NCBI GenBank assembly: GCA_963771885.1
Contig: CAVYVF010000022.1
Coordinates: 128,001-192,000 of the forward strand
Direction of reading: 5' to 3'
Source of the DNA: Candidatus Bathyarchaeota archaeon
Lineage (GTDB): Archaea > Thermoproteota > Bathyarchaeia > TCS64
Length of the DNA: 64,000 nt
Shown here: positions 11,531 through 56,958 of the stretch, piece by piece
Layout: the number at the start of each line of letters is the position of its first letter
Numbering within the stretch: the first letter of the stretch is position 1
Program-made: the position numbers and the translations under genes
The notes under the pieces: generated by a model
Told to the model about the DNA's origin: nothing
The model's database searches: none
What the model saw: the letters and a program-made list of their open reading frames with translations, nothing else

Positions 11531-11978
11531 GACTATAACCCGTGCTAAGCCCTTCAGGAAGAGTGAGACCTCGCGGAATTTTACACTTATGCTCTGCCAG
11601 ATGCAAGATTCTAGAATGTTCTTTGGTGTCGCTAGTCTTACTTCACAGGCTCAAAGTGGGAGTAAGGTTCAGTGGTCGACGGCGCGCGCCCATTGGGATT
11701 GTTATTTATATTCTATTTGTCTTTTATTATTCTTAGATAAATAGGGATTATGTGATTATCATTTTATCAATATCTTTTATTTATTTCTTATGGGGTTTAC
11801 ACTTAATGAGAGATGTTCATCTCTAATTCAGATATGATTTGCAGTGAAAAATTTGCGGTAAAAAATGTCCCACAATGGCGCAATTTGACGCTTTTTGGCA
11901 GTTTTCGATGGATGACTTGCCTGTTTCTAGCCTCTTTTCCGGAAAGGGGTTATAAAAAACGTTTTCAGGTGCATAATC

Positions 11979-12269
11979 ATGCCCATTTCTGACGCTGGTA
12001 GGCGTCGCCGAGCCAGGAGGAGACGTGTTTTTGAGCTTAGATTGATGTGTTGGACCGTTGATCGAATAGCTGCTGAGCTGGGTGTTTGCGAGAAGACGGT
12101 TGACCGTGATATCGCCACACCTGGCGTACAAGCTAGACTGAAGGAGGCTGAGCGGCGGTCACGCCGAAGAACCGCGGAGATGTGGCGGATATCCACGGAA
12201 AACCTATCCCTCGCTCAACGGGATCAGCTGCTCGGGCTTCTGATGAAGCCTATGAGGCGTCGACATTAA
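11979..12269 (+). CDS. Small basic HTH protein
   Basis: WTVDRIAAELGVCEKTVDRDI HTH pattern. Confidence 0.7.
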   Translation: MPISDAGRRRRARRRRVFELRLMCWTVDRIAAELGVCEKTVDRDIATPGVQARLKEAERRSRRRTAEMWRISTENLSLAQRDQLLGLLMKPMRRRH

Positions 12270-12485
12270 TACACATTCCTTCAAGTTGCCTACTCGCGCG
12301 CGAAGTGGGCTTGAGTACGTCAACTAGATACGGGGAATTCACATTTACATGAAGCGATAATAGAGTTTTTTAACACATTACATCTATCGTAAAAACTTGA
12401 CCACTACCTCGACCATCGACGAATAATGCGGGCTCTTCAGTAAATGGCGGAATTAACTGAGTAATTAGGACTGCACGTGCGCAGA

Positions 12486-13376
12486 TTAAGGTTTAATTTG
12501 AAATGTACCCGTATAAAACGCTGATCTTGCCAACTCAACGTCGACTTGCAGCTTTAACATTACATTATATACTTCATTTAAACCAACTTCATCTAGTTTC
12601 GGCTCATTATTAGAACCTATGAGATCGACTTTGTTAAGTTCCATAAGATCTTTATTAAGAACACGCAAAGAGTCTACTTGGATCCTTGTTATGTTATTAT
12701 AATTATAATTGTTCTTGAGTATGAGATATGTCATGTAGACGTTATTCCAATCATTCAGGAATGACCTAAGGTCATCAGCCGCGAATTTTATTTGAGTAAG
12801 TTTTTCGCTGCTAGGATCAATGAGTTGAACGATTTCATCGTAATTTGCCGATAATTCACCCGCATATTCCAAGAGATTTCTCTGAGTCAGAAAATCGATC
12901 TTTTCCTCAGCTACAGTAGCATTCAAGATACCCGTCATTTTATTCGTCAAGTTCCGGTTTTCAGCTAGCACATTTACTAAAATTGAGGATTCCTTACTGC
13001 TTAAACGGTTGAAGTTTACGAAGAGAAAAATGTTAGATAATATTAAGATTACAATTATGAAGACCGCAAAGAATTTAATTCTGCCCATTAGCTTCTGCGA
13101 CTCTATTGTCTTCTGCGACATTTCTACGTTCGAAATCAAGTTTAACGCGGCTTCTCCGAACGTTGTCAGGTGGTAATGACCCTCATCATTCTTAGCGATG
13201 AGATCCCCCATATTTTCGAGGTGGTAGTTGAGGAAACCCGTTGTAACCTGCAGTCTGTTAAGCAGACCAGTGTATTGTATCTTTCCATCGGAGAGTATTC
13301 TCAGGATCATTCTCCTAACGGGGTGCCGTAGGGCCGAGAATATCCTTGAGTACGTGTCCTCTTCGAAATCGGTCAA
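12486..13376 (-). CDS. Membrane-anchored ArsR-like wHTH regulator with a C-terminal domain beyond the TM helix
   Basis: IFSALRHPVRRMIL, TGFLNYHL, YHLTTFG; TM FFAVFIIVILILSNIFLFV; likely start TTG 13376 (ORF track extends to 13484). Confidence 0.75.
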   Translation of the reverse strand: MTDFEEDTYSRIFSALRHPVRRMILRILSDGKIQYTGLLNRLQVTTGFLNYHLENMGDLIAKNDEGHYHLTTFGEAALNLISNVEMSQKTIESQKLMGRIKFFAVFIIVILILSNIFLFVNFNRLSSKESSILVNVLAENRNLTNKMTGILNATVAEEKIDFLTQRNLLEYAGELSANYDEIVQLIDPSSEKLTQIKFAADDLRSFLNDWNNVYMTYLILKNNYNYNNITRIQVDSLRVLNKDLMELNKVDLIGSNNEPKLDEVGLNEVYNVMLKLQVDVELARSAFYTGTFQIKP

Positions 13377-13418
13377 ATCACTCTTATTGAAGTTGCCGGA
13401 GTCTCTAAATAAGTTTCT

Positions 13419-13484
13419 TTGAAAGGATTTCTTGTCAAAATTGTGCAAGTTCCTCTTGAAATCTTTGACAAGGATTGTTTTCAA
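13419..13484. promoter_or_regulatory. Imperfect inverted repeat (putative operator) in divergent promoter
   Basis: TTGAAAGGATTTCTTGTCAAAA (13419-13440) vs reverse complement of 13463-13484, TTGAAAACAATCCTTGTCAAAG, 17/22. Confidence 0.5.
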
Positions 13485-13530
13485 AATCTCTTAAAGGTAT
13501 AGTCGATGGGTAGTTTTACGGGTGAAGTAG

Positions 13531-14013
13531 TTGAATACCCGCAGGAAAGCAGGCATGTTGGTAGGTTTGGTGTTCGTGTTAGTTGTTTCGTCCATGGCAG
13601 GTCTTTTCCCTGCCAAGGCTACTGACACGTACATTTACGCGGAGCCCGATCAAGGGTCTTTTTATACGATAGACTATTCGGTTTCGGGGCCGATCGATGG
13701 TACGACGGTAGTTAAACCTCTCGTTACTTATACTTACATTCCGATCAGCGGCACACTAACGCATGATCAGGGTTGGCAATCATCTAACTATACTCCTTAC
13801 GCGATAAGTGTGAGAATGAGTAGCGTGACGACCGGCTATACCCTGACTTGCTCAATCATATCCGGCGGAGTGACAAGGTGGTCGGGAGAGCTTGGGAGCG
13901 GTCAGAGTTCGCCCACAATAACGGTTAACGGAGCAACAACCTATGTAAGGCTATTGAATCAGAACTCTGCAACTGTCTCCTATTCGGGCACAATCACGCT
14001 GGTGAACAACTGA
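13531..14013 (+). CDS. Secreted Ser/Thr-rich beta-strand protein
   Basis: Signal peptide ending PAKA; TRWSGELGSGQ motif shared with 31216..31707. Confidence 0.7.
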   Translation: MNTRRKAGMLVGLVFVLVVSSMAGLFPAKATDTYIYAEPDQGSFYTIDYSVSGPIDGTTVVKPLVTYTYIPISGTLTHDQGWQSSNYTPYAISVRMSSVTTGYTLTCSIISGGVTRWSGELGSGQSSPTITVNGATTYVRLLNQNSATVSYSGTITLVNN

Positions 14014-14018
14014 ACGAG

Positions 14019-14582
14019 TTGATAGATGTGAAAAAGACCTCGAATTACGTAAAAGCGTTGTTAGTGGCAGCGCCATTCATTTTCATAGGCATGCTGGCGC
14101 TTCTGCCTCCCCAACAACTCGATACAGTTGGCACACAAGTTCTTTCGGCTAGTGATGTTGAAAACCCTGAGACAGCTAAGCAATATGGAATTAAGGGCTA
14201 TGTTAAAGTAACATCCACCAATGAAGAAAAAACAATTATCTGTAAACCTGGAGACACCGTGACAATATTTGGTACAATCGAATACGTTTCTTATTCAGTC
14301 GATAGACCGACAACAACTATCAACGTCAACTTAGCTGACGATAGTCACGTCATGAGACAGGGATTAGGAGATGGAAAAGGCGAAATTAGGATAAACGATT
14401 ACGCCGCTTATGACTTAGCTGGGGAATACACCCTTGTACACGATACACCACTTTCGTACAAACTAACGATTAATATTCCCGAAACCTTCCCACAGACCGA
14501 TTTTTCTCCGTCCTGTATGGGCATTACATCTTCAGTATTCTTAATCAATGACATTGGAGTGACAATTAATGTTCAAAAGTAG
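14019..14582 (+). CDS. Membrane-anchored/secreted hypothetical protein
   Basis: N-terminal hydrophobic helix, beta-rich remainder. Confidence 0.65.
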   Translation: MIDVKKTSNYVKALLVAAPFIFIGMLALLPPQQLDTVGTQVLSASDVENPETAKQYGIKGYVKVTSTNEEKTIICKPGDTVTIFGTIEYVSYSVDRPTTTINVNLADDSHVMRQGLGDGKGEIRINDYAAYDLAGEYTLVHDTPLSYKLTINIPETFPQTDFSPSCMGITSSVFLINDIGVTINVQK

Positions 14583-15441
14583 AATAATCTTAATAACTAC
14601 GATAGTCGCGATGATGTGCCTACCCTCTGTGTTGGCATATCATCCATATATGGGGGCTTACTTCAACCAAACACCAGGAACAACGAACAAGGTAATATTT
14701 GATACTAACTTCGTAAGTGTAAGTGGAGCTAACTTTGGGAGTAATTGGCTGGCAGGTGTCGTATCAATTTCCGGTGGCGGCGGTGCTGGTGGAACTAGTC
14801 CAACTGGGTTCATCTACCAGAATGGTTTCCTTTTACATAGTAATAACAATGTAGAGTGGGCACCTCAGTACTGGTATCTTAATTCCCAAGTGAATGGTTA
14901 TTCAGATGGCAATGTTGGGACGTATACCTATCAGTTTTTCTTTGGTAGAATTGACTACGATTCTGCTAACAGTAGGATTTACTATAGACGTTGGTGTTAC
15001 TCCACAGCATATAATGTTGAGCATGATATTTATACAACAGATGATTGGGAGCATTCAATACCGGCCGGTGATACTAACTTCTTATATGGTGTGGATACAG
15101 GTTACTCTCCCTCTATAAAATATGCGCAGATGGGTGCTGAAGCTACTGCAAATATTACTAATGTAAATTGGAAAAACCAAGACGGGCATTTCAGCGTCTA
15201 CGTTTCTAATGCATGGCGTTATTACGCTGGGCTTTCAACCAGAGGTTCAAACGCGGTTTGTACACGCGTTGGAGGTACTCGCGCCAAAATTGGCGGGTTG
15301 AACCTATTATGTGATAAATATAACAGCGGCACCCAGGTGGTAACTTGGTATTATAATGGCGCTAACATGTTAGCAGAAGGGACAAGCCTCTGGGCTGGTT
15401 CTGGAACAACGAGCCCCATTGTGCAAACGCCATTTAATTAA
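14569..15441 (+). CDS. Secreted hypothetical protein
   Basis: Signal peptide MFKSRIILITTIVAMMCLPSVLA; Gly/Tyr/Asn-rich. Confidence 0.7.
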   Translation: MFKSRIILITTIVAMMCLPSVLAYHPYMGAYFNQTPGTTNKVIFDTNFVSVSGANFGSNWLAGVVSISGGGGAGGTSPTGFIYQNGFLLHSNNNVEWAPQYWYLNSQVNGYSDGNVGTYTYQFFFGRIDYDSANSRIYYRRWCYSTAYNVEHDIYTTDDWEHSIPAGDTNFLYGVDTGYSPSIKYAQMGAEATANITNVNWKNQDGHFSVYVSNAWRYYAGLSTRGSNAVCTRVGGTRAKIGGLNLLCDKYNSGTQVVTWYYNGANMLAEGTSLWAGSGTTSPIVQTPFN

Positions 15442-15465
15442 TCATTGCGCGCGCATGAGTGAAAG

Positions 15466-16041
15466 TTGGAGTGTAGATTCAACATGAAGGTTTTAAAAAT
15501 TGGAAGAGCGAAGCAGTATGCTGTTCTCGTTGTTTTCGCCACTCTTATCTTTTCGATGGCAACACAGATTGTATCAGCATTCTATACCCTGGGGGTAAGT
15601 TGGAGTGGTAGCGTCAATCCACTGTACTACTACGATAATGATGGCTATACAGAAACAACAAGCGCAGCTTCGAGCTGGGCTGTAACTGGGGTATTTTCTT
15701 ATAGCTCAGGTACAAGTGCATCTCCAATTCATGTACATAGTGCCAGAGTAACGGGAGTAGCCTGGGATGGACAAAGTGATATTTCCGGATTTGGAACTAC
15801 AATTACCGATGTTCAAACCATTATCAATACCTACTACTGCGATTCGTATAGCTCCGCTGCAAGAAAGAGTGTCATTTGCCATGAGTTAGGACACGCACTT
15901 GGTTTAAATGAAAATCCTGACATTGAAGTTGTACGTAGCGTAATGAATCCTTACACATTCGGCGATTACTCACGATACGGTTATTGGGCGATTTCGAGTC
16001 CAACAACTGATGACTTTAATGGAGTAAATTATATCTATTGA
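15466..16041 (+). CDS. Secreted matrixin-like (metzincin) metalloprotease
   Basis: Signal peptide; HELGHALGLNE zinc motif and SVM Met-turn. Confidence 0.8.
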   Translation: MECRFNMKVLKIGRAKQYAVLVVFATLIFSMATQIVSAFYTLGVSWSGSVNPLYYYDNDGYTETTSAASSWAVTGVFSYSSGTSASPIHVHSARVTGVAWDGQSDISGFGTTITDVQTIINTYYCDSYSSAARKSVICHELGHALGLNENPDIEVVRSVMNPYTFGDYSRYGYWAISSPTTDDFNGVNYIY

Positions 16042-16053
16042 GGTGAATTAAAG

Positions 16054-16611
16054 ATGAAAAAATATCTTTTACTTTGTAGTATCCTCCTAACAATTACCAT
16101 GGTAGCAGCTTTTTCTGCGATGTCGACTATACCAATGAAAACCGTGACATCTACTGCGAGCTGGGCAATTGGTTACAGAGATATTCCCTCACTTACTAAC
16201 GGCGCCAGTACCGTCATAATGGGGACAGTAATTTCAGAAAAGACCTATAAAGTCAATTATGGTGCTGATTTTATTATTTTCACAAACTATACCATTGCAG
16301 TGTCTAATGTTTACAAAGGTGATGTATTGGAAAATATTATCGTAAAACAAACAGGGGGACTGTTTGAAAACACTCTCTATACTATCGAAGATGATCCGCT
16401 TTTCCCCTCGAGCACTCCGATGATACTTTTCTTAGAACAATTCGGTCCTAACAGTTACTTTATAATCGGTGGTCCCCAAGGGCGGTTCCATGTTGTCAAT
16501 GATAGGGTGTACTCGGTAGGAGAGTTAGAAAACTCCGCAACTGGAACAACAAGTCGACTCAAAACATCAGGAATTTCTTTTAATGAGTTTGTGAAACAAA
16601 TTGGTCCTTAA
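16054..16611 (+). CDS. Secreted protein, possible partner of the metalloprotease
   Basis: Signal peptide; VIMGTV, VYKG, QTGG, ILFL, GGPQGRF pattern. Confidence 0.6.
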   Translation: MKKYLLLCSILLTITMVAAFSAMSTIPMKTVTSTASWAIGYRDIPSLTNGASTVIMGTVISEKTYKVNYGADFIIFTNYTIAVSNVYKGDVLENIIVKQTGGLFENTLYTIEDDPLFPSSTPMILFLEQFGPNSYFIIGGPQGRFHVVNDRVYSVGELENSATGTTSRLKTSGISFNEFVKQIGP

Positions 16612-16937
16612 TTAGGTTCAACTGCCAGTTGATTTTAATTAAAAACTTCTTATTTAGAATATCCTATCCGACGATATTTTCAGTTCGTAATGTCCGACGC
16701 AGATTTTACAGAACCGATACGCGCGCGGGCAGGTTCGAAAGCCAGACCGCATTATGCGCCGAGCTAGAGGAAACATTGTAGGAAATGATCATGGTTAAAC
16801 TCTATCTGATCGGCGGTATCCCTCGCGACCCTCGCCAAGGTCACAAGATCCTCATCCGCGATGCACACGCAGCCGATGAGAAAACGGCATTAATACACAT
16901 TTCTTCAAGTTACCTACTTCGAATCGCGCATTCATTT

Positions 16938-17264
16938 CTAGAGAGTGGCTGTCTTTAGTGTCTCGATGACTGTGAACTCATATACGACGACATCTCTCGC
17001 TGGCTCCCAGGAACCATAGATGCTGATCCACTTCTGCTTGAACTCCGCGAGGCTGTCGAAGCCCTCCAGATATGCCTCCTCCTCGGTGACCTCCCCGAGG
17101 CTCTGGCGGTATCTCTTCGTTATCCTGAAGTGGCGGCTCGTTGACTCGGTTCTGCTGACTTGGATAGAATAGACTTTTCCGACACTGAGGAGCCTTGTGT
17201 GTGTTCTCCTGGTCTGGGTTTTCCTCCCCGATAGGATGAGTGGGAGGAACTCTTTCTTGAACAT
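16938..17264 (-). CDS. ASCH domain protein
   Basis: MFKKEFLPLILSGRKTQTRR (GxKxxxxR), EEEAYLEGF. Confidence 0.85.
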   Translation of the reverse strand: MFKKEFLPLILSGRKTQTRRTHTRLLSVGKVYSIQVSRTESTSRHFRITKRYRQSLGEVTEEEAYLEGFDSLAEFKQKWISIYGSWEPARDVVVYEFTVIETLKTATL

Positions 17265-17716
17265 CAAGGCGCTCCGCCTCCGCATCTATATATGTCTCTG
17301 AGGACGATGAGCTTCGCCTGGTAGAAGTACCCGCCCTCCCGTAGCTCCTGCCTGGTTGGGGGCGTGATGTTCTCTGTGTGTCCCTTGTGGAAGTCGGCTG
17401 CGTGTAGCTCCTCAGCCTTCTCCCATATCTGTGCCCTGACCCTTGGCCAGAACTTGCCAGCCATCAGGAGTCGCCTCAGGGAGTCTCCTGGTAGTTGGCG
17501 CCACCTAGGCGGTTTGCCTCCCGGTAGAAGCTGCGTCTCGAGCTCTAGCGCCTTACCCTGGACAGTGACTGCTATCTCTTCGAGACTCGGGGAGTGTCCG
17601 AGGGTTAAGTCGGATTCGTCGATGCTTACCTCGGCCTCTTGGGTGAGCTCGTCGCGGTACTTCTTCTCGGCGTCGGGGAGGCGTACGTTTAAGCGGACCC
17701 GATAGGTGACGATCAT
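17264..17716 (-). CDS. Hypothetical MGE protein
   Basis: ATG at 17716 overlapping the upstream stop; MIVTYRVRLNV... Confidence 0.55.
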   Translation of the reverse strand: MIVTYRVRLNVRLPDAEKKYRDELTQEAEVSIDESDLTLGHSPSLEEIAVTVQGKALELETQLLPGGKPPRWRQLPGDSLRRLLMAGKFWPRVRAQIWEKAEELHAADFHKGHTENITPPTRQELREGGYFYQAKLIVLRDIYRCGGGAP

Positions 17717-17871
17717 TTCTTTGCCTCCTCTCCTGTGTCGACTACTGTGTCGATGGTGACTTTGCCTTCCCTGATTCTCCTGATTCCTTCCTCGATTGCC
17801 TCCTCCCTGGAGGCTGCGGTTACGGTGATTGTGCAAAGGTCCACCCACCAGGGCGTCTTCTTCCCGGTCAT
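17713..17871 (-). CDS. Small hypothetical MGE protein (52 aa)
   Basis: Hand translation MTGKKTPWWVDLCTITVTAASREEAIEEGIRRIREGKV...; ATGA coupling to the next gene. Confidence 0.5.
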   Translation of the reverse strand: MTGKKTPWWVDLCTITVTAASREEAIEEGIRRIREGKVTIDTVVDTGEEAKK

Positions 17872-18118
17872 GGTTTCCGCCTCCGGTCTCCGTAGGGGCA
17901 GCTGCCACAGTCACTTGGGCAGTTCCCGTTGGCGATCGCGTGGTAGCAGTTTATGATGTTCTCTTTGGCTCGCTCGTCGGGGCACTTATTCGCGCATTGA
18001 GTGCATCCGTCTGCTTGGCAGAGGTCCGGGATGCGTCTGAAGGCAATTCTTGAAGCTCATTATGCAGACGTGTCCGTCGTTCTGCGGGCAGCTCAAGTTC
18101 TCACATGGTAGGCTCATC

Positions 18119-18595
18119 CTAGTCCGCCTCCAGAATGTCGCCTCTGTTGCTGATGACGAGGCTTACCGCCTCTTTGGCTGGTAATCCGAGGAGCATGGCT
18201 CCGAAGGCTGCATGTGTGGCTGCCTTGAGCACACTTGCATCTGGCTGCTGGGACTCAGGTACCCCGATGGTTTCCCTGGCGAAGCTGACCAGCTCTGCGG
18301 GGTACTCCTCGATGCCGTCGTTCCAGAGTATCGCTTCGGCGACGTCTATGATTTGAGCCCTGGTACTCCCATCCACGCTGGGAGTCGGTATATCGGATTC
18401 CTGGACGGAGACGGCGTACTCCATGCTGCCGTCCTCACGCTGGTTGAAGTAGACCTCATCTGATGCCCTGTGCTGCTCGTTGCTCCAGTCCTTGGCGTAG
18501 TCCTTCGCGTATGCTACTGCTTCCTCTTTGTTGAGGGTGGTGAGTGTTATCTTGGGGATGTGGTTGTCTACGGCTATGACCGTGTAGACTCTCAT
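18119..18595 (-). CDS. Hypothetical MGE protein
   Basis: MRVYTVIAVDNHIPK...; 3' part of ORF 18119..18973. Confidence 0.55.
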   Translation of the reverse strand: MRVYTVIAVDNHIPKITLTTLNKEEAVAYAKDYAKDWSNEQHRASDEVYFNQREDGSMEYAVSVQESDIPTPSVDGSTRAQIIDVAEAILWNDGIEEYPAELVSFARETIGVPESQQPDASVLKAATHAAFGAMLLGLPAKEAVSLVISNRGDILEAD

Positions 18596-18818
18596 CTCGC
18601 GTCGCCTCAGAGGTTCGCGGACTCTACCGGTCCCTTGGTGAGGTATTCGAGGCAGATGCCTGCTAGGTCGGTGGCTCGAATGGGCGGTGGCCCTCCTCCC
18701 AGTTGCCGAGGAGGGGTGCGATGGCTCGGATGAGTGTGCAGACGTTGAAGTGGCGCATTTGGTGCAGCTCCGCTTGAAGCTGACGGCTCTCCGGGTGGCC
18801 TGTGGTGGTCTGCATATT

Positions 18819-19700
18819 CTAGGCCGCCTGGAGGGGTATGACCTTGTGGAGGTGGTCGAAGTGGAATATCTTGATGCGCATGTTGGTGGATTGTTGTGCC
18901 AGATGTTTGCGGTGATGTCGTTGTATATGTCCCAGACGGTTTCGGGTTTGGCGTTGAGTGTGGTGGCCTTCATTGGGTCGGCGAGTAGGTAGCTGGGGTA
19001 GACTTTGGCGGGTAGCCTGCTCTTTAGGAGCCTTGCTCTGGAGGTCGTCGAGGTACTTCTCGTCTGCCTTCTTCTTGGCCATCTTCTTGTAGCTCTCGAT
19101 GATGTCTACTGCTCTGTCCATGATGCTGCAGATTATGTGGCTGAGCTGGCCGACGACGGGGTCGATGGCTGCGGTGTGGCGCTTGTAGACGTATTCGAGC
19201 GTCTTGCGCTGGTCGAAGTCCTGGTGGTAGCCCTTTGATCCTGCGAGTACCATGTTTCTGCAGGCGTTTCTGAAGGTGAATACTCCGGCTCCGAAGCTGG
19301 TGGTTCCGTCGATGCTGTTGTGGACTCCTACTCCGATGTGCATCTCGTCTCCGTTTACCTTGTAGGGCTCGTTGAGGGCGTAGAGTGCGTGTACCTTGAA
19401 GCCGTCCACTATGACGTGGTCGTCTAGTCGCTGGAACCAGCTGCCGGTGAACTCGTCGAATGGGACGAGGCCCATCTGCTCGGCGGTGGCGTCTGCTATT
19501 TTGACGGCTTCCTCGTTGGGTAGGACGTGGTACTGGGTGGTGGCTATCTGGGCGATTTGCCCGGCTTGGAGTATGGCCTTGTATTTGGTCTGCTCCCCGT
19601 TTAGGAGGAGTGGTACCTCGGCTAGGTTGTATTGGCTCCAGGTGTCGTCTGGTTGCCCCGATGTGAGGCTTATCTGGTCTGAGGTTTCCAAGTTGTTCAT
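18819..19700 (-). CDS. DUF932 family phage/plasmid protein (C-terminus appears to carry compensating frameshifts)
   Basis: YHVLPNEE and HNSIDGTTSF...FRNACRNM match the DUF932 NSxDG...R.xC.N pattern. Confidence 0.75.
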   Translation of the reverse strand: MNNLETSDQISLTSGQPDDTWSQYNLAEVPLLLNGEQTKYKAILQAGQIAQIATTQYHVLPNEEAVKIADATAEQMGLVPFDEFTGSWFQRLDDHVIVDGFKVHALYALNEPYKVNGDEMHIGVGVHNSIDGTTSFGAGVFTFRNACRNMVLAGSKGYHQDFDQRKTLEYVYKRHTAAIDPVVGQLSHIICSIMDRAVDIIESYKKMAKKKADEKYLDDLQSKAPKEQATRQSLPQLPTRRPNEGHHTQRQTRNRLGHIQRHHRKHLAQQSTNMRIKIFHFDHLHKVIPLQAA

Positions 19701-20048
19701 CCTCGTCTAAAGGTTCGGGGCTGTGAATTTGTTGACTTGTTAGAGCATAAGTGTGAAGGTTGGGGCGAGTAACGTTTGTCTTTCAGGGTTCGGTGCTTCG
19801 CCTGTCAGCGATTATTCTAATTGTAAAGCGGGGAAACGGATGGGTTTATGCTTCCGTGTGAAAGTAGTCAACCTCCCCCAACACGAGCTTGACCTCATCC
19901 TTGAACTGTTAGATGAGGCGCAGGTAGCAGTCTATGGCTCGAGCTCGAGGCCCAGAGCCACTTGATACCCCGTCGTCGTGAAGAGGCTGAAGCCCTCCAG
20001 GGTCTTCACTCCCTCAGCGGCGCGAGCGAGACATTTAATGAAACGATA

Positions 20049-20071
20049 GCAGACCCGGTGGGATTCGAACC
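20049..20071 (-). other. tRNA 3'-end-like fragment (possible att scar)
   Basis: Minus strand reads GGTTCGAATCCCACCGGGTCTGC, i.e. T-loop plus acceptor 3' strand; no 5' half adjacent. Confidence 0.6.
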
Positions 20072-20273
20072 TAAAGGGGTTCAGACCCTTATGAACAATT
20101 TATTCATTGAAGAAATAAAATCCTTTAATTAAAGTTCTATTCATTACAAAAATGCAGTTTATATAATCATTAAATAAAATAAAACGAACTTATAATAATT
20201 CTTATAGTAGAGGTTAGTTTATAACAGATACTTTTCATTTTAAATCCATGAAGCCAATAGATTTGTATAATAA

Positions 20274-20909
20274 CTAAAACTCTTTACTATTTATTTGTTT
20301 TAAGATGTTCTCCATTTCCTCCAATGTTATCTTATTTGAGAAAATAGAGAGATATATCATATTCTCTTCACCCACATCCGACCACTTATCATCAAAAATA
20401 AAGCAATAATTCCTATCGACGAACTCGCTGAAATTCCTCGGCCAATTCGCATACAAAGCATCGATATCAAGAACTGCATTGTAGAAATCCCCCTCAAACA
20501 TTAGGAAACTAGATGCAAGGAAACCACTTACATATTTATTAATTAACTCAGATTGTACTTCTAGTTTTGAGCAATCAGCTGCGAACCATTTTAACTCCTG
20601 TTCCTTCTTGTCAATCCATCTAGTTAACAGCGACGTCTTTCGATAATAGAAGTAGTGACTTATTCCCCTGTTTTGTAAGTATTGCTTTGTCTCTGGGATA
20701 TATCCTGCTTCAGACCAGCTTGGTATAACTCTATAATAAAATGCGACAGACTTTCCTACTCCAAGATGGCTGATCAAATCGACAATTGCTTTTTTATTTT
20801 TTTCAGGACATTTTACCCAGATACGAGTAACGTTTCTCTTTAACTCTGCAGACCGATCCCAGGGCCAATTAGGCAATACTTTATGATTGTTTGTTTCAAT
20901 CTCCAACAA
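20274..20909 (-). CDS. Putative immunity protein for the upstream RHS toxin
   Basis: AT-rich 211-aa ORF starting 3 bp after the RHS stop. Confidence 0.55.
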   Translation of the reverse strand: MLEIETNNHKVLPNWPWDRSAELKRNVTRIWVKCPEKNKKAIVDLISHLGVGKSVAFYYRVIPSWSEAGYIPETKQYLQNRGISHYFYYRKTSLLTRWIDKKEQELKWFAADCSKLEVQSELINKYVSGFLASSFLMFEGDFYNAVLDIDALYANWPRNFSEFVDRNYCFIFDDKWSDVGEENMIYLSIFSNKITLEEMENILKQINSKEF

Positions 20910-20912
20910 TCC

Positions 20913-23900
20913 CTAGTGCCACCTACGTTCTGAAGCATCTATGTAATCACCCAGTGGGATATAAGACTCAACAACGGCTCCAACGAGGGCTCCATTAACT
21001 ATCGCATATGCATTAGCTCCCCCTCCTCGCCTAAACATTGCATCGACTAAAGAATCCATTTTTGGAGCAGCATAGTCCCATTCTTTAAGTGATCTAAGTT
21101 GCGTGTTTCTCGGAGTAACCGCATCAGCTGCTACTGATCCGATCGCTCCTGAAGCAAAGCTAGACCCAACATCAAAGGCAGTAAAATCATCACCGTTGAT
21201 TGTGGATTCGATACCGGCACAGACGACGTTAATTCCGCCCGAAAAAGCATGTGTTAACCCTCGCCCTACAAGGCCTGTAGCTTTCAATCCCCATTCCATA
21301 GCTATTGTTCCAGCAACAGGAGCTGCGAGTACACCTAATGCACCTCCAATAGCACCGCTAGCAGCTGCTGCGAATGCACCTTGTGCCGTCATTTCTTGCT
21401 TGAAAATAATGCTTTCAGCGGCGTAAAAACCTAGACTAATAACCATCCCAATAGCTGCGCCAGCCAGGATCGGTGCAAAAATGAATCTTCCATCTGGATC
21501 TGTATATTTCAATGGGTTGTTTCTTGCATATGCATACCTGTTTAGGCTCTGGGGATCGGTGAGAATAGGTGAAGCAGGGTCCTCTGTGATAAACCGCCCT
21601 ATACTTGGGTCGTAGTATCTTGCCCCGTAGTAGTAGAGTCCCGTGGCTTTGTCTTCTGGTTTGCCCGTGTATCTGAACTCCTCAGAACCAACCTCACCCT
21701 CGCCAACGCCGAAGGGCTGGTAGTTACTCGAGTCGACCACATCACCACCCGCATCCGTCACAAGCCTCGTCGATCCCAAGTGATCTTGGTGGAGATACGT
21801 GGTCACGCCACCCGTCCTCTCCGCCACCTGCAAGCCCACCAACGTAGAACCGAATAGTAGCGTCACCGCCCCCGTCAGGCACCTCATACAACACGTTCAG
21901 CCCAGAGTACACATACCTCATGTTCCCTGAGGCGCCATCGTAGCTCCGTACCCGGCGCCCGTCCGCATCATACGCGTAGCTCCTCACGACGCTGCCCCCG
22001 ATGGACACGTCGGTGAGGCGGTCATAGCCATCGTAGCCATAGGCAGTGGAGCCGCCGCCAAGCACCTGGAACCACAGCTCATAGGGAGAGGTAATCGACT
22101 CCGTCCAAGCCACCAGCAAGCCGGGTGAAGCTCAGCGGGATACTGCGAAGTACGAGTTGCTCTTGTATGTGGAGTTGGCCTCCCCCACCTGGGCTGGCTG
22201 CGACCAGCCACCCGCACCCTCCCGAACGGAGCAGTACATCAAGTTAGCCTGGGGGTGGCCGAGCCAGACGCAAATCAGCCTATCGCCGTCCAGGGAGATC
22301 TGCGGGGTGACGTTCGAAGCCGTGACCGATCCCTGTATCACCACGGGGGTGCTCCAAGCGTTCCCCGCGTAGGTCCAGTTCTGGTACACGATGTCCTTGT
22401 TGCCCTTCGAGTAGACGACGTGAACAACATCCCCCACGGCCACAAGCGAGCTATACGAGCCATCCTGGATCGTATTCGAAGTCGACACAGGCGTACCCCA
22501 GGTCAGACCGTCGAACCGAACCATGCTGATGACCGCACCATCCAACGTGTACTCCGCAGCCAGCTTCCCCCGTCCAAGGCAGCTACCGTCACCTTCAAGG
22601 ACCCAGACGTGGCTGAGAGCTGGTGGGGGAAACCCGAGGCGGTGCTCCACGTGTCATCCGTATTCGCGTTCTTCGTCACGTATGGGAGGCTGTTGCTACA
22701 GAACCCGATGTAAGCGTGGCCATCCGAGTCCACAGCGATCGTCGCCGAGTTCACCGAGGTGAAGCCCGAGATGTATCTCTCCGTCGACCACGATATTACC
22801 CCATCCGAGCCGCAGACGCCTCTCCTGTAGAACATCGTGGTGCCACCCGTCGCGATGACGTAGTAGACGTAGGTGTCGACGATCGCCACCGATAGGTAGT
22901 ATGCGTAATAGTAGCTGGACTTGACGAGTGACGAGTTGCCCCAGTTGACGCCATCTATGCTGCTCCGGTAGACGAGGTTAGAGCCATCACTATACACGAC
23001 CCAGTACCTCCCAGCGGCGTACCATGTCTTCCTCTGGTTGGGGTTGTTGACGTTGTGGTACGTCGTCAAACCGTCCGCCACCATCGATACGGCCGAGGAA
23101 GCGTTAGTGGAGCTTCTGCCCACCATGTTCCCGTTCAGATCATCGGTGAACTCCTCGTCCCCGGCCGTGGTGAGCTCGTTCAACTCGTTGTAGGTGTATT
23201 CGGGGAATCCCTCGACAACATGTTACCCACGGCATCGTATGTGTAGTCTATTGTGCCCCACGGCCCGGTGGTGCCGTTCAGCCGATCCAACATATCGTAC
23301 TCATAGGTCTCCGTGCCGACCCCATCATCTATAGTGAGCACGCTCCCGAGTCATCATAGGTGTAGTTCGGATCCATGAGCGTCTCCCCCGAACCCATGCC
23401 GATCTCCTCGGTGTTCATCGCGACGTCATCCACCGCCACCGTCACGGCGGCGTTCGTCACCACGACGCGGCTAGCCTGTTGACCACCGCGCGCGCGCGCG
23501 CTCGGTCTCGTAGACGCGGGTGACGTTCCCCGAGTCCAGGCTCGCGTAGTCGTTTATGCCGTCGCCGTCGAAGTCCCACCGATACATCGTGATTCGACTC
23601 TTGACCTCACTGGGCGTTACGACGACGCTGAAGCCCGTGAACAGCGGAGAGTCCCCGCGGTCAAATAGAGCACGTCACGGATATCACCGGCTCCTCGACT
23701 CTAGGGAATCTGGGGCCCCGGCTCCGTGCCATTAAGGACGGAGTCACCGGCCTCAATGTCCGTGGCGTTTGAGGCATGCACGGGCCTGAGTACTTGACTC
23801 AGGGATAGCCAAGCCTGGCTAAGCCAGCTTTCCTCTGCTGGTGTCTGCTGCACCATCACCGCCAATGGCAGGGCCAGTGGCCCCGAGGTCAACATCATGA

Positions 23901-23934
23901 CTACGAGCAACGCGGATACGAGGGCACGCTTCAA
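20913..23934 (-). pseudogene. Secreted RHS/YD-repeat toxin, fragmented (signal peptide, PKD remnant, YD repeats, RHS core, Gly/Ala-rich C-terminal domain)
   Basis: MKRALVSALLVVMML signal; YRWDFDGDG PKD motif about 23560-23585; YEYDMLDRL, YTYDAVGN; HQDHLGSTR, GLYYYGARYYDPSIGRF, NPLKYTDPDG; several frameshifts and an in-frame TGA at 22132. Confidence 0.85.
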
Positions 23935-24523
23935 GAATCATTCACCTGAAAATGACCATCACAAACTGGATATTAGATTGTAACTGAATCATTGGCGTGT
24001 AAAGGGTGGGGTAATGGTGAACGTGTGTATTGCATCAGCGATTATAATATTAAATATAGGATTCTATAATTGTTTAACTAATAGGTTAACGATAATTGAT
24101 TATTGATATGTATTTAATATATAGATGAATTGTTGAGTGCTAAGATGTCGACGTTGTATTGGATCAGTGATACCTGATACACATACGTTAAACTAATTAA
24201 CTCCCTGGGCTTAAGCGTTGATTTCCATTGATATATGGGACTGATTCATAACTTTAATTAAGACAGAAGATAAAATGTGTTGCTTAATGTGCTGAGTGTA
24301 CCTGTTGAGCAACTCAGGCATCTGGACGCGTTAGAATGGTCTCCCGCGTACTTGAGATACTCTTATTCAGTAACCATCGACGCCTATAGGGTCTTTTTTT
24401 TGGAACCTTTTCAAGAAGACTTAAGCTCAGTTTTATCACGGTTTTGACCAAGTTTATCTTCAAAGGATTACGCGATCCGAATGATACATACCTTCTCTGG
24501 GCGCCGATAAATTCCTTCTCTCG

Positions 24524-25994
24524 GTGGGCGATACTGTTCACGTCGTCTACTCGAAGGGCAACAAGGACATCGTGTACCAGAACTGGACCTACGCGGGGGA
24601 AGACATTGAGCACCCCCGTGGTGATACAGGGATCGGTCACGGCTTCGAACGTCACCCCGCAGATCTCCCTGGACGGGGATAGGCTGATCTGCGTCTGGCT
24701 CGGCCACCCCAGGCTAACTTGATGTACTGCTCCGTTCGGGAGGGTGCGGGTGGCTGGTCGCAGCCAGCCCAGGTGGGGGAGGCCGAACTCCACATACAAG
24801 AGCAACTCGTACTTCGCAGTATCCCGCTCAGCTTCACCCGGCTTGCTGGTGGCTTGGACGGAGTCGATTACCTCTCCCTATGAGCTGTGGTTCCAGGTGC
24901 TTGGCGGCGGCTCCACTGCCTATGGCTACGATGGCTATGACCGCCTCACCGACGTGTCCATCGGGGGCAGCGTCGTGAGGAGCTACGCGTATGATGCGGA
25001 CGGGCGCCGGGTACGGAGCTACGATGGCGCCTCAGGGAACATGAGGTATGTGTACTCTGGGCTGAACGTGTTGTATGAGGTGCCTGACGGGGGCGGTGAC
25101 GCTACTATTCGGTTCTACGTTGGTGGGCTGCAGGTGGCGGAGAGGACGGGTGGCGTGACCACGTATCTCCACCAAGATCACTTGGGATCGACGAGGCTTG
25201 TGACGGATGCGGGTGGTGATGTGGTCTACTCCAGTAACTGCCGGCGCGCCCTTCGGCGTTGGCGAGGGTGAGGTTGGTTCTGAGGAGTTCAGATACACGG
25301 GCAAACCAGAAGACAAAGCCACGGGACTCTACTACTACGGGGCAAGATACTACGACCCAACCATCGGACGTTTCATAACGGAAGATACCGTGATGGGCGA
25401 TCTGACCTGATCCCCAGTCACTAAACAGATACGCATACGCAAGAAACAATCCGAATAAGTACGTAGATCCCGATGGGAAATTCTTCTTTATTCTTCCTCT
25501 TGCTTATATAGCAATTCCTGCCGCAGTCGCTCTTGGATACATAGTTATTGCCCCCTATATTCCGATAATAGCCCACTATGTTTCTTCGGTATTATCTCCA
25601 ATAACACCGAGTACGGGACGTATTGATGATCCATTAATCGATATACAAGATAATCTATTACGCTGAGTCAGGATCCTCTCGTGAAAAAGAAAAATGGGGA
25701 AAACATGAATCAGATTTTAATGAATATTATGAAGGAGAGAATCCACCTAAAAACGTTGATGAATACAAAGACCTCTGGGAAAATACTTCAAAAATTACAA
25801 TACCAATCACAATGAAGACATTCGGGAATATGAAAGGGCAGATGGTACGAGGGTATTCTATGATAAAAAAGACAATCTATTTGGAATTGAAAATTCTAAT
25901 GGAAGTTTTAATAATTGTTTCCCTCCTAGTGATTATTTGGACTATTATCTACCGTAATCAGTTAAAAAACACGGGTGAATCTTTTTTACCTTAA
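24524..25994 (+). pseudogene. Orphan RHS module 2: inverted near-identical copy of about 21490-22437 plus a different C-terminal toxin
   Basis: Same sequence as the minus-strand copy up to NPNKYVDPDG; then a new tip with KHESDF...ERADGTRVFYDKKDNLFG...FPP (hand translation across frameshifts). Confidence 0.8.
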
Positions 25995-26009
25995 TTCCCT
26001 AAATGTATT

Positions 26010-26395
26010 GTGATTACCTTGTTTAAATGCCCATGTTGTGGTTATCCAACTCTAGAACGACAAAATCAGCAAGATACATGTTTTCTATGTAAATGGGAAG
26101 ATGACGGACAGACTTGATAATGATGCTCATTTAATTTATGGGGGCCCAAATTCCAACTATTCTTCTCTTCTTGAAAGCAAGAAATAATTTTAAAAAAGCT
26201 TTAATAATGTATAGACCAACAGATAACCGTTTTAAATATTTTAAGAATAAGACCATTGATGAAATTAAGAAGCAAATCATATATTTTAATAATATAAAAA
26301 CTAATAAACAAAATAATTTACATATAGATATAATGGATTTAAAAATACAATTAAATAATGAAGAAGAAAAACAATGGAATAAATACCATAAATAA
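26010..26395 (+). pseudogene. CPCC-family Cys-rich (immunity-associated) protein, frameshifted
   Basis: Hand translation FKCPCCGYPTL...TCFLCKWEDDGQ / GGPNSNYS / ARNNF. Confidence 0.8.
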
Positions 26396-26487
26396 TAGGA
26401 AATTAAAGCTTTGACCTGATGATAAAAAAAGTTCTCTGAGTAACTCATTAGAGGTGGGCTGCTACTCTCAGATTCTACGTTGGCTCT

Positions 26488-27341
26488 TTGCAGGTGGCGG
26501 AGAGGACGGGTGGCGTGACCACGTATCTTCACCAGGATCATCTGGGTTCGACGAGGCTTGTGACGGATGCGGGTGGTGATGTGGTCTACTCGAGTAACTA
26601 CCAGCCATTCGGAGTCGGTGAAGGTGAGGATGGTGGCGAGGAGTTCAGATACACGGGCAAACCAGAAGACAAAGCCACGGGACTCTACTACTACGGGGCA
26701 AGATACTACGACCCAACCATCGGACGATTCATAACGGAGGATAGTGTACTTGGAGACCTTTCTGATCCGCAAAGTATGAACAGGTATGTCTACTCGCAGA
26801 AGTAACCCGACAGATCTTAGGGACTGAACTGGGCATTGGCTTGAGACGGCTCTAGATGTATTGGGTCTTGGGCTCGATATACAGGCATACAATGAGGACC
26901 CAAGTTTCTTCAACGCCGCTATGATTGGACTGGATCTCGTTTGCATAGCCTTGCCGAATCGTACCCGCGGTAGGCTGCGTACGATTCATCGACAAAGCAG
27001 ATAATGTAGCAGATGCAGCAAAGTATTTTGATGAGGCTTTAGAAAGTGCAGCAAAATTCTCTGATGATCTCAGGATCTCCATTATATTCACCTGAACATG
27101 CAAAACATGCATTAGATATGGGATATGACACCTTTGGCGATTGGGCTCGTGGATCCAAACAAGAGGCTTAAGGAGGAACACACAAGGTTTAATAAAAGGT
27201 GACTTGAATTACGATTTAATGCGGCAAACGAGCCCACACCCTGAAGGTTGGGTAATAATAAATAATCAAAAAAGGTGGGCAACTACATTTAATACAGATA
27301 GAGTTAATGTACTCACTTCGACATCTATCCTGATACGATAA
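26488..27341 (+). pseudogene. Orphan RHS module 3 (core fragment plus a third C-terminal tip)
   Basis: HQDHLGSTR...ARYYDPTIGRF...DPQSMNRYVY, then TGHWLETALDVLGLGLDI...; frameshifts and stops. Confidence 0.75.
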
Positions 27342-27374
27342 TACGAAATCTTTACTCCGGAGGTTGGAGTCCTA

Positions 27375-27986: not shown

Positions 27987-28057
27987 TGATATGGATATTA
28001 AAAATACTTTATGATATTAATGTAGAGATATGCATGGCCATGTGCATGCCTCGTGTG

Positions 28058-31186: not shown

Positions 31187-31215
31187 CTCTAGAAAAAGGA
31201 GTGTAGGATGAAAAA

Positions 31216-39212: not shown

Positions 39213-39256
39213 GATTGTCCGGTATAGGATAAACAGGACAAACCATATATAGGAAA

Positions 39257-41126: not shown

Positions 41127-41243
41127 ACCCTTACCCGCGAGTGAAGTCGTCGGATTAATACTTAAGTTTTCTTGGATTACCGAAGCTGACTACGCGGATC
41201 GGCATATAGGTACTTTGGACGTTTCACGTTGAAAAGGAAGGCG

Positions 41244-52826: not shown

Positions 52827-53188
52827 TTTCCCTTTACACCCCATTAGTTAACAATTGTTTAGTGGTTGAATAGGTTGAGTGTGATTCTTGTTGGGGGGGA
52901 TTACGCGCGGGCTTCAGTTATTTTAACAGACGAAAGGATCGTTTTCACTCGCGCTCCTGCTTATGCCCCGAACCTATAATAACCACGCACCCACAGATTA
53001 TGAAAGAGTGAAATAAAAGTATGCCAACGAAAAGAATGACGAAGAAGAAGGATCACAATAGAAAACCTCATAAAAAGGAGTTGAAGGGAGATAGACTTCG
53101 ACACACACCCAAAAAGGTCGAAGATGCCCCAATTACAGCTTAATTCTATTAAGGATCAAATGACGCCAAGCGCGCGCAATTGGCCACA

Positions 53189-53600: not shown

Positions 53601-54193
53601 AGATGAGGCTAACTGGAAAGAGTCTTGGGATTATGGTTTCTTAATGGAGTATAAATTCACACATGCATTGTCTACTCTATAGAATGTTGAATATTCTAAA
53701 TCCTAGGATAGTACACTAAAGATCGGATGAAACTTTACCAGATACTAGCTACACTCCTAATGCTCCAACTCCTAGTATTTCTGCCACCGATTAAACTATA
53801 CTCGGATTCATTTAATCAAAAATATCCCATAATTTACCCTCATTTCGATGTTGCCACTTACGGAGAAAAAGTACTCTCTCTCGCATCTACGGGCGGCATC
53901 GGCCCAGTAGTATTTCTAAGACAGGACACAGTTGGGGTTGTTATCAGTGATCTGGAGATCAGGTGGGAATACCATTATACTGCTGCTTATCTGGGAAACA
54001 CTCTTTTGGATATACTACTCATAGGTCTAGTTATCTCAACATATAGAATAGAAAACTCGGTTACTACGCATACTCTTACAAAGATACGCAGAGGGTTAGA
54101 CCATCTCATGATGAGCGCGCGCTTAGCACGCGTACGAGTTCTTGTAAGATGAGGCTAATCGGAAAGAGACTTTAAGATTAAATTTTCTTAATG
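53601..54193 (+). repeat. About 46-bp imperfect direct repeat pair (53601-53646, 54147-54193)
   Basis: AGATGAGGCTAAnnGGAAAGAGnCTT..GATTA...TTTCTTAATG in both. Confidence 0.8.
53727..54152 (+). CDS. Membrane protein (hypothetical, possibly truncated)
   Basis: N- and C-terminal hydrophobic helices; lies between the two repeats. Confidence 0.5.
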   Translation: MKLYQILATLLMLQLLVFLPPIKLYSDSFNQKYPIIYPHFDVATYGEKVLSLASTGGIGPVVFLRQDTVGVVISDLEIRWEYHYTAAYLGNTLLDILLIGLVISTYRIENSVTTHTLTKIRRGLDHLMMSARLARVRVLVR

Positions 54194-54944: not shown

Positions 54945-54976
54945 AGCGTCTCTGATCTCGCGGGTAGGCTAAGCCT

Positions 54977-55981
54977 TTAAAATAATATCGGGCCGGGCTG
55001 CCTGATTGCAATAGACTCGGAGGGAGCCGAAAGTAGTCTCTTAAGCTCATCATCAAGCTTAAGGAGAGTCACAGATGTGCCAGCCATCTCTAGGCTCGAC
55101 ATGAACTCGCCGATCCATGAGACATGTATCTTCACCCCTCTCTCTGCGAGGTTCTTGTTGACGCGCCTGTAAAAGATCAGTTTCTCCATAATGGGTGTGC
55201 CCCCGTTGCCCTGCACGAGGACGACGACCTCGTCCCCTTGAATTAGCCCGAGGTCATTCGCGCATGCATCGGTGAGGGTGTCTGCCGCGTCGTCGGCAGT
55301 CATCATCTTGACCCGCTTCACACCACGCTCGCCGTGTATACCTGTGCCGAGCTCCATCTCGTCGTCCGCCAGCTCGAAGCTGGGCTTCCCCGCTCGGGGA
55401 ATGGTGCAGGGTGTGATGGCGCATCCCATCGATCGGACGTTGGCGATGGTCTTCTGGGCTACCGCCTTGACCTCTTCGAGTGTGGCGCCCTCCTCCGCTT
55501 TTGCGCCGGCGCACTTGTGGACTAGAACAGTCCCTGCTACGCCGCGGCGCATCTCCGGTTTCTCTATCGCGACATCGTCGTTTACGATGACCCATTCGGT
55601 CTTTATTCCGCTGGTACGCGCCATCTGTGCGGCGGTGCGGAAGTTCATCACGTCTCCATTGTAGTTCTTGATGATGAGAAGTGTCCCGATTCCTCCGTTG
55701 ACTGCCTTTATTGCAGCCAGTACCTGTGGGACAGGGGGTGATGTGAATACCTCGCCACAGCATGCTGCTGATAGCATCCCCTTTCCCACATAGCCCGCGT
55801 GAGCAGGCTCGTGTCCACTCCCTCCGCCGCTCACAAGAGCCACCTTCCCCTTCACTGGTGCGTCCGGCCTCAAGATGTTGTTCCAGTTAGGCATCTTCGC
55901 CGCCAACGAGGGGTAGGCAAGCACCATGCCCTCGAGCATCTCCTGGACCTCATCGCCGGGTCTGTTGATCAGCTTTTTCAA
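54977..55981 (-). CDS. dhaK: Dihydroxyacetone kinase subunit K
   Basis: MKKLIN, SGGGSGHEPAHAGYVG, KNYNGD, RRGVAG, GIHGE. Confidence 0.93.
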   Translation of the reverse strand: MKKLINRPGDEVQEMLEGMVLAYPSLAAKMPNWNNILRPDAPVKGKVALVSGGGSGHEPAHAGYVGKGMLSAACCGEVFTSPPVPQVLAAIKAVNGGIGTLLIIKNYNGDVMNFRTAAQMARTSGIKTEWVIVNDDVAIEKPEMRRGVAGTVLVHKCAGAKAEEGATLEEVKAVAQKTIANVRSMGCAITPCTIPRAGKPSFELADDEMELGTGIHGERGVKRVKMMTADDAADTLTDACANDLGLIQGDEVVVLVQGNGGTPIMEKLIFYRRVNKNLAERGVKIHVSWIGEFMSSLEMAGTSVTLLKLDDELKRLLSAPSESIAIRQPGPILF

Positions 55982-56126
55982 CGTTTAAACACCGAGTAAG
56001 AGACCATTCGTGAGCACATATATTAAATCCAACACGTGACGCGCGTCGGTTCGATCTGCATTGTCTCCATGCAGCCTCTCCTTTGCGGGGGTGCATCTTT
56101 ATCACTTCACGGAGAGTTATTCACTT

Positions 56127-56759
56127 ATGTCGACGAGGATACTCCCGGCGATAATCGCCTCCACCCAGGAGGAACTCGACGGGATGTTTACCCGCCTCGA
56201 GGGTAAAGTCGAGTGGGTCATGCTAGACCTAATGGACGGGGCTTTCGTCTCCACAAAGGCGCTCATGTTCCCCTTTAGACTCAGGAAGGGCCTTCGCTAC
56301 GAAGCGCATCTCATGGTCAAGAGACCCCTCGACTACCTGCCCGCCCTCAAGGGCATAGTCGAGGCGGTGATCATCCATGTAGAGTCAGACAACTTCCATA
56401 AGGCACTCACGAAAGCGCGTAGCCTCGGATTCGAGGTAGCCGCAGCCATAAACCCCGGCACATCACTACAAAAGCTGGAGCCACACCTCAAGGAAATCGA
56501 CAGGGTCCTCGTTATGACCGTCGAACCTGGAAGATACGGTGCACCTTTCGTTCCAGCCACGCTGGAGACCGTGAAGAAGCTCAAGGTAACAGCCCCTAGC
56601 CTACCCGTCGAGGTCGATGGCGCAATGAATCCCGAGAACGCCAGGAAGGCACGCGTAGCTGGCGCCACAATCTTCGCTTCAGGGAGCTACCTCATGAAGT
56701 CATCGGATTTAAAGGCAGCATTAAAGACCCTGAAAGAGGCGATCAGTGATATAGCGTGA
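56127..56759 (+). CDS. rpe: Ribulose-phosphate 3-epimerase family protein
   Basis: DLMDGAFV, EAHLMV, IHVE, INPGT, MTVEPG, EVDG. Confidence 0.85.
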   Translation: MSTRILPAIIASTQEELDGMFTRLEGKVEWVMLDLMDGAFVSTKALMFPFRLRKGLRYEAHLMVKRPLDYLPALKGIVEAVIIHVESDNFHKALTKARSLGFEVAAAINPGTSLQKLEPHLKEIDRVLVMTVEPGRYGAPFVPATLETVKKLKVTAPSLPVEVDGAMNPENARKARVAGATIFASGSYLMKSSDLKAALKTLKEAISDIA

Positions 56760-56958
56760 GAATTGCTCCTTCCTGGTGTAGTTTGTTACTTCGTTGAATT
56801 TCTAGTCAAGATTGGGTCTAGGTAGTCGTTTTATTAAATCATATGCCGAGTTGACACAGGAGACTTACAAACGGCGCGAGTGACCACCTCAATGCGCGCG
56901 CGCATGTTAGATCGCTACGAAACCGTATTGCGCGTGCGCTGGGAAGTGCACATCTGGA

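Follow-up and report, generated by a model that had tools for sequence, protein, structure and literature searches.

We analyse a 64-kb stretch of DNA (the window) from a Candidatus Bathyarchaeota archaeon, lying on contig C22 of its genome (2.46 Mb; here called G000), and the pure alternating (GC)n runs in it, which we call tracts (long tracts being those of 8 nt or more). In G000 and in many of its relatives, a self-pairing GCGCGCGC patch, written anew, closes the sites where DNA was lost or reshuffled: its bases are new at the joined DNA ends, usually where the intervening DNA has gone, the tract is inherited, and some later joints reuse tracts that already exist. An earlier note on this window, made from its letters alone, had read (GC)n as inserted or used at junctions, and both halves of this interpretation hold, with new bases at joints plus occasional reuse.

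The window holds 12 long tracts, against a mean of 1.86 and a maximum of 5 in 100 dinucleotide shuffles, and the whole genome holds 208, with 122, 60, 25 and 1 of length 8, 9, 10 and 15 nt. By our own gene calls, 151 of these are intergenic, 15 lie in atypical open reading frames (ORFs) and 42 in typical genes. The comparison with a dinucleotide-aware null that the earlier note had proposed gives a tenfold enrichment between genes (148 tracts in intergenic DNA of G000 versus 14.8 in shuffles) and a depletion within them (42 tracts in typical coding DNA versus 88 under synonymous-codon shuffling), and tracts are common to independent assemblies; a lack of enrichment or an equal frequency in genes, named there as outcomes that would speak against the idea, is not what we find. 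The related statement that no long tract lies in an intact GC-rich core gene is right for the window, where the longest runs inside intact genes are indeed the 7-mers at 4305 and 6687; genome-wide, 42 of the 208 do lie inside predicted typical genes. Alternating AT and AG runs show little or no excess, and an (AT)n counterpart in tract-poor genomes was considered and dropped, since ATATATATA counts reveal no such switch. Tract length is narrow (7–10 nt, with a thin tail); a hard limit of 10 nt holds in G000 except for the one 15-mer, but relatives reach 18 nt.

To ask whether the bases at a joint are new, we compared G000 with G003, a relative 96% identical to it, over 0.42 Mb chosen mostly around G003 tracts and therefore enriched for them. 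Among 30 simple indels, the shorter allele carries a run of at least 7 nt at the joint in 11, compared with 1.2% of random intergenic windows. Both parental flanks can be read at 13 usable joints (10 from G003, 2 from G000 and 1 from a paralogue, with seeds read by eye), after dropping three rows of near-equal length, one direct-repeat deletion and three reuse rows. At these joints the tract replaces between 8 and 3,902 bp, and 9 of the 13 require 6–11 new bases; GCGC is present at both parental ends in none, and four matching bases occur at only 2 of the 26 ends. In the cleanest case a 10-mer stands in place of 2,078 bp of a paralogue, with no GC at either edge. From these counts we conclude that the tract is new filler. 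Microhomology-mediated deletion would place the joint sequence at both parental ends, which we do not find (0/13 for GCGC), nor do we see among these joints the footprint of cut-and-paste transposition (a duplicated native target with no net deletion): deletions dominate, and point insertions are rare (a gain of four bases at window position 25244 relative to its paralogues, and one 8-bp duplication). With GC that the parents do not supply, neither a native-target footprint nor microhomology alone can explain the joints.

A one-sided comparison extends this result to 388 free tracts in all the other loci that we fetched, 44 rows of which have a reference (these include reciprocal pairs, six rows from G000's own loci and two of substitution noise). 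The parent matches the tract by 0, 1 or 2 bases in 17, 12 and 6 rows, by 7–9 bases in nine, and by 3–6 bases in none. The alignment check suggested in the earlier note, filler against microhomology, thus comes out mostly as filler, the tract being absent from the parents, with reuse in a minority: the nine rows with a parental match of 7–9 bases represent seven distinct sites. One specific footprint model, in which an insertion sequence (IS) duplicates a native GCGC target and its excision or an adjacent deletion leaves GCGC+GCGC, would account for the sharp AGCGCGCGCT peak described below, and 45 of the 62 IS copies considered further on fit a 2-nt tip with a 4-bp duplication; the absence of parental GCGC noted above refutes it for the junctions compared, none of the 35 non-reuse rows matches at more than two bases (A-flanked loci included), and we regard it as very improbable. 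The reuse rows are also what would be expected if breaks fell at pre-existing (GC)n, whether as fragile sites, as Z-DNA-prone sites or as signals, and nothing were written. This idea may describe later reuse; as an origin it is refuted by the absence of most junction tracts from both parents, the lack of a shared flanking consensus also speaks against it, and we give the idea a slighter chance still.

The flanks carry a signal at the adjacent base and nowhere else: T stands 5' of the tract in 46% of cases versus 31% in controls (p = 2e-8), and other genera have it at 50 of 92 ends. Some lineages have a patch flanked by A and T, AGCGCGCGCT making up 29 of the 42 8-mers in the G140 regions and 10 of 15 in G111, and at A-flanked loci the A itself is new in at least four of nine rows. 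Among 580 flanks we find no shared consensus or repeated flank beyond duplicates, and no conserved recombination site past one flanking base (integrases were not searched by profile). An integron-like cassette system needs a conserved site beyond the core, which the tracts do not have.

The tracts are inherited, in that 130 of 223 queried G003 tracts of at least 6 nt are identical in G000. This also bears on the suggestion that they are library or assembly chimeras. Support from raw reads is lacking (22 reads from one run, whose contigs cover the tract at 52904 and fall 31 bases short of bridging that at 53170), yet identical tracts in two genomes, their presence in dozens of separate assemblies, some of them single-contig, the depletion in genes and the lineage-specific flanks leave chimeras hardly credible. 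Of 17 genomes of the same genus 15 have the trait, as do several other genera in the family; over the 201 genomes of the class its occurrence is patchy, with 10- to 30-fold differences within single genera. Other genera and one single-contig genome of 39% GC have excess tracts in the fetched regions, mostly outside long ORFs. The GC content of relatives was read from these fetched regions, with no genome-wide GC-matched background, and for this reason counts in the genomes of 60–65% GC (G004, G006, G015, G017) are partly background.

A second actor, not foreseen in the earlier note, is a family of IS elements, which we found by a profile search with DDE_Tnp_1 followed by a reading of the anatomy of each copy. 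The elements fall into related clades of 1.1–1.25 kb with transposases of 310–360 aa, and carry GC runs just outside both inverted repeats. The transposase combines DUF772 with DDE_Tnp_1 and the element has terminal inverted repeats, the features of the IS1182 family; in NCBIfam the best match is IS1182 in 5 of 5 cases, at 92–176 bits against a cut-off of 270, with IS5_4 at 77–128 bits against 140, both below threshold. We therefore describe the family as IS1182/IS5-like; judging by the labels of its loci (74 of 77 Bathyarchaeia), it seems almost confined to this class, and its transposase forms at least 2,453 protein clusters. A source among IS630/Tc1-mariner elements was rejected, the DDE_3 transposase being present in 0 of 5 tract-rich genomes. 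We collected 62 distinct copies with GC runs at both ends. In these 124 ends, positions 1–3 are fixed by the search pattern, and the outward positions 4–7 are G in 121, C in 118, G in 109 and C in 52 or A in 50. A search for the inverted repeats that placed no requirement on GC gives runs in 44 of 45 copies (read by eye), and outside the GC run no duplication beyond chance exists in the 62 copies. The runs at IS ends peak at 6 nt, compared with 8 nt for free tracts, and reach at least 8 nt in 24 of 124 ends; one copy has runs of 4 and 4, and in one case two IS ends share a single 6-mer. Because positions 4–6 vary, and given the 4/4 copy, the shared 6-mer and the runs of at least 8 nt, the element does not appear to carry a full 6-nt GC tip of its own. 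The sum of left and right runs minus 4 comes to 8.9, versus 8.6 for free tracts (p = 0.055), and minus 6 it comes to 8.0 (p = 0.005), a poorer fit. What adjoins the run goes with the host: elements of two transposase clades have T there in genus g1, whereas in G140 it is TA. The transposase profile has no match in three tract-rich genomes, G003, G111 (a single contig) and G213; G000 has IS remnants only, all outside the window, and G033 also has remnants.

Two loci hold back-to-back IS ends, which share one 6-nt tract in L323 and have no tract between them in L361. Facing IS end motifs 170–200 bp apart (G043:C38:151263-151430, G007:C32:1585-1784 and G036:C87:6061-6229) are probable miniature inverted-repeat transposable elements of the same family.

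What process could write such a patch and attract such an element? The explanation that we favour, and to which we assign about an even chance, is that a (GC)4-5 patch able to pair with itself is written by host end joining and then serves as the target to which the IS homes. A host end-joining activity would grow alternating G and C on broken ends; since (GC)n pairs with itself, any such tail could anneal to another tail, to an existing tract or to a native GC or GCG seed. The paired ends would be extended by rounds of untemplated addition and of copying from one end to the other until the duplex can be ligated, at about 8–10 bp. The most plausible writer would be an enzyme that both adds untemplated bases and copies across ends, with PriSL or PolX as candidates. 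The IS would then take the patch as its target, adding about four GC bases in total, and its transposase may recut at patches and so shuffle gene modules. This explanation fits the variable runs at IS ends and the shared 6-mer, the way the flanking base goes with the host, the run-length sums and the tract-rich genomes with no match to the IS.

Several observations weigh against it. The IS end motif occurs at least twice in 10 of 14 tract-rich and 1 of 26 tract-poor genomes of the family (rho 0.67), a correlation that is largely that of one genus, whose kin are not independent; IS copies in tract-poor surroundings keep their 6/6 runs; and no pair of filled and empty IS alleles, such as would put the patch first, was found (a metagenome scan gave three chance matches). 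Nor does any host gene tested track the trait. LigD Pol is present in about half of rich and poor genomes alike, PriS and PolX are each found in 5 of 5 genomes, rich and poor alike, and PolB is likewise present in 5 of 5. Reverse transcriptase is absent from G000 and present in 1 of 5 genomes, the motif matches to Thg1 are by sequence exosome subunits (the family is absent from G000), and a second ATP-dependent ligase is widespread (135 of 201 genomes). A universal enzyme by itself fails to explain 10- to 30-fold differences between sister species. PriSL itself, as characterised in Saccharolobus, is described as having terminal transfer and annealing through 2–4 GC pairs (PMC12019639), with products that are mostly 1–2-bp indels giving CC, GGC, CGG or CCG, and G runs in vitro (PMC12019639; PMC3333859). 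The likeness to our tracts lies in archaeal break repair, terminal transfer, GC-pair annealing and G/C-biased insertions (PMC12019639; PMC3333859), but its described signature is these 1–2-bp indels, and not alternating 8–10-nt (GC)4-5 palindromes at kilobase deletions.

On the gene inventory itself, G000 has both PriS and PriL, and PriS is present in tract-poor genomes too; PriS and LigD Pol are its only two AEP-family genes. The PolX catalytic motif is intact in rich and poor genomes alike, and the Thg1 family occurs in 17 of 201 genomes, none strongly tract-rich. A second FEN1-like gene lies beside the second ATP-dependent ligase in G000 (C23:532639-535246).

The same correlation between IS end motif and trait within the family speaks for an IS-seeded scar, in which the joint is the work of the IS1182-like transposase (through an insertion that replaces its target or a deletion next to the element); the IS would then leave, 2–4 GC bases of its tips would remain on both ends, and host repair would extend and pair them to give the 8–10-nt patch. 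The GC runs in all 62 copies and in 44 of the 45 found without a GC requirement, the remnants in G000 and G033, and a patchiness typical of IS elements are in line with it, and there are precedents: IS1272 is described as inserting without target duplication and deleting 21–85 bp (PMC5678879), and a sequence of insertion, deletion and excision is reported for IS3 with IEE (PMC8860574). Such a scar would, however, require hundreds of IS visits per genome. There is no profile match in G003, G111 or G213 and no end motif in G052, while G037 has six IS ends yet few tracts. Apart from the 8-bp duplication and the +4 at 25244 read from paralogues, no clean point-insertion footprint exists among the G000/G003 junctions, tips alone cannot supply 9–11 new bases, and the deleted stretches inspected by eye have no stem-loop ends. 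We consider the IS-seeded scar the main rival, although the less likely of the two; it and writing by the host both need a step that lengthens alternating GC.

The earlier note had also suggested Ku and LigD as the genes to look for, and a complete archaeal Pol-Ku-ligase/PE-DUF72 cluster is indeed present in G000 (C23:378512-382788, the ligase and PE parts read from sequence). Ku is found in 16 of 19 genomes of the family and in 0 of 12 outside it. As the cause, this lead did not bear out: LigD Pol does not track the trait, being found in 12 of 23 tract-rich and 18 of 39 tract-poor family genomes with no match in 11 rich ones (among them single-contig G033 and 96%-complete G043), and outside genus g1, in genera where Ku was not searched, no LigD-positive genome exceeds 18 tract hits per Mb. 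Writing of the patch by Ku-LigD non-homologous end joining is thus largely refuted as a sole cause and appears improbable.

Fillers known from end joining are the closest functional parallel to the patch. N-nucleotides and filler made by TdT, Pol mu or LigD Pol are new bases at a joint that are in neither parent, and the bases of the GC tract are likewise absent from both. To our knowledge, however, the fillers described so far have a random sequence, are very short or derive from adjacent DNA, whereas the GC tract is stereotyped, self-complementary, limited in length (7–10 nt) and reusable: it is neither random nor copied from nearby, being a fixed alternation of G and C that parents match by 0–2 bases in 35 of 35 non-reuse rows (farther templates were not searched). 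In function the patch resembles end-joining filler, yet it does not match known filler, nor what microhomology, LigD, a footprint or a cassette system would predict.

The IS has relatives too. IS1272, of the IS1182 family, shares with it a related DDE transposase, the lack of target duplication, palindromic targets and perhaps the loss of target DNA on insertion, and is described as having a 548-aa transposase and as replacing 21–85-bp stem-loops of any sequence (PMC5678879); our element differs in its length, in its shorter transposase and in lying always in (GC)n. Excision driven by IEE resembles our joints in that an IS plus an end-joining polymerase yields deletion joints without the IS, but is described as relying on homology of at least 4 bp and as leaving barely any trace (PMC9943667, PMC8860574), and G000 has PriS and LigD Pol as its only AEP genes. 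Elements that target repetitive extragenic palindromes (REPs) also home to a dispersed intergenic palindrome (PMC1525189); REPs are described as sequence families of 20–40 bp (PMC3733652), whereas the target here is an 8–10-nt patch made at joints. For bacteria, it has been proposed that an IS can insert at breaks already present (PMC11708052). In the literature searched, which covered few subscription papers and no supplements, we found no description of such a GC patch or of the GC-associated IS.

In the window itself (Table 1), the earlier note had listed 12 long tracts and four shorter ones (25244, 30812, 52904, 56040), and each lies where it was placed. It had also held that homology stops at the tract wherever a reference exists. 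This stands at 12295 (on both sides, with different partners), at 28161, at 33128 (1 nt before the tract) and at 56894 (within about 4 nt); it fails at 28810, where the clear match is lost about 21 nt before the tract; the junction is therefore not cleanly shown there, and this tract looks a weaker case than the other four. The tract at 12295 is absent from both the left paralogue (16871-16918) and the right one (on contig C2), which match it by 0 and 2 nt. The naming of remnants as rep did not survive, since the ORFs give only weak winged-helix matches below cut-off, and the broken PKD domain at 23487 comes down to a sub-threshold match (E 0.045) plus a frame change: the PKD-like frame (23474-23674, minus strand) runs into the tract and apparently continues in another frame. 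Reuse is exemplified by 53170 and 56040. G003 lacks 53149-56040 and keeps the GC run at the 56040 edge with another left partner, and a tract lies just downstream of the same small-ORF module in G003, G002, G009 and G013, each time with different neighbours.

Table 1. Tracts in the window and the island that contains most of the long ones (positions within the 64 kb).
Feature	Position	Context
29.7-kb island	11503..41180	absent from G003; contains 9 of the 12 long tracts
(GC)4 tract	11682..11689	about 180 bp inside left end of island; no reference allele
8-nt tract	12295..12302	joins two unrelated pieces
8-nt tract	15447..15454	in 24-bp gap separating ORFs 14569-15441 and 15466-16041; no reference allele
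8-nt tract	16720..16727	intergenic; no reference allele
15-nt tract	23487..23501	longest in the genome; no reference allele
6-nt tract	25244..25249	within RHS-like remnant; net +4 bases versus two paralogues that have only GC there
9-nt tract	28161..28169	ends RHS-like remnant (28048-28161); sequence runs on in both paralogues, with no GC repeat
9-nt tract	28810..28818	near end of remnant resembling 36506-36535
9-nt tract	28962..28970	left of AbiEii/AbiEi pair (29284-29676, 29930-30604); no reference allele
7-nt tract	30812..30818	right of AbiE pair; no reference allele
9-nt tract	33128..33136	truncates copy 32697-33127 (95-99%) of winged-helix-like ORF 36511-37491; parent without tract
6-nt tract	52904..52909	between tRNA-Leu (52742-52826) and 40-aa ORF module
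8-nt tract	53170..53177	ends small-ORF module
8-nt tract	54115..54122	downstream of Dak genes; no reference allele
6-nt tract	56040..56045	reuse site
10-nt tract	56894..56903	right flank of G003 matches to within about 4 nt; no tract in G003

The island has as its edges a 9-bp direct repeat (11494-11502, 41181-41189), not GC tracts, and contains RHS-like remnants, the AbiE pair and orphan genes. Contigs C2 (1-12 kb), C3, C5 and C6 of G000 hold the same accessory genes in varied orders with tracts at module edges, and these arrangements may be strain variants of one island. The 40-aa ORF is basic, lies at 53021-53143 on the plus strand after tRNA-Leu, and is conserved in four relatives. Its module is 97–99% identical between G002 and G009 despite different neighbours and ends at tracts, which suggests recent transfer. 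An Rfam search of the window returned tRNA only. Elsewhere in G000, contigs C17 and C18 have no long tracts, duplicate PolX and its neighbours, and are likely contamination, and a long poly-T/poly-A stretch (C1:86304-86813) is probably an assembly artefact.

Taken together, the patch and the IS that sits in patches point to an undescribed way of rejoining DNA. More specifically, and with somewhat less than even confidence, we propose an undescribed end-joining pathway of Bathyarchaeia in which an enzyme writes a (GC)4-5 patch with no genomic template, as a universal self-pairing adaptor through which any pair of ends, or foreign fragments, could be joined, and a dedicated IS has evolved that homes to the adaptors and reuses them as cut sites, giving a self-generated form of cassette shuffling. 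Template-free repair of double-strand breaks is still an open question in most archaea, and GC scars make it testable: a scar of constant form, with hundreds of copies per genome, would record each joining event, with four candidate enzymes and sequencing as the read-out. Useful tools might come from an enzyme able to write a self-pairing adaptor or from a (GC)n-specific transposase. For the organisms themselves, the tracts mark the sites of gene gain and loss in one of the most widespread groups of uncultured archaea.

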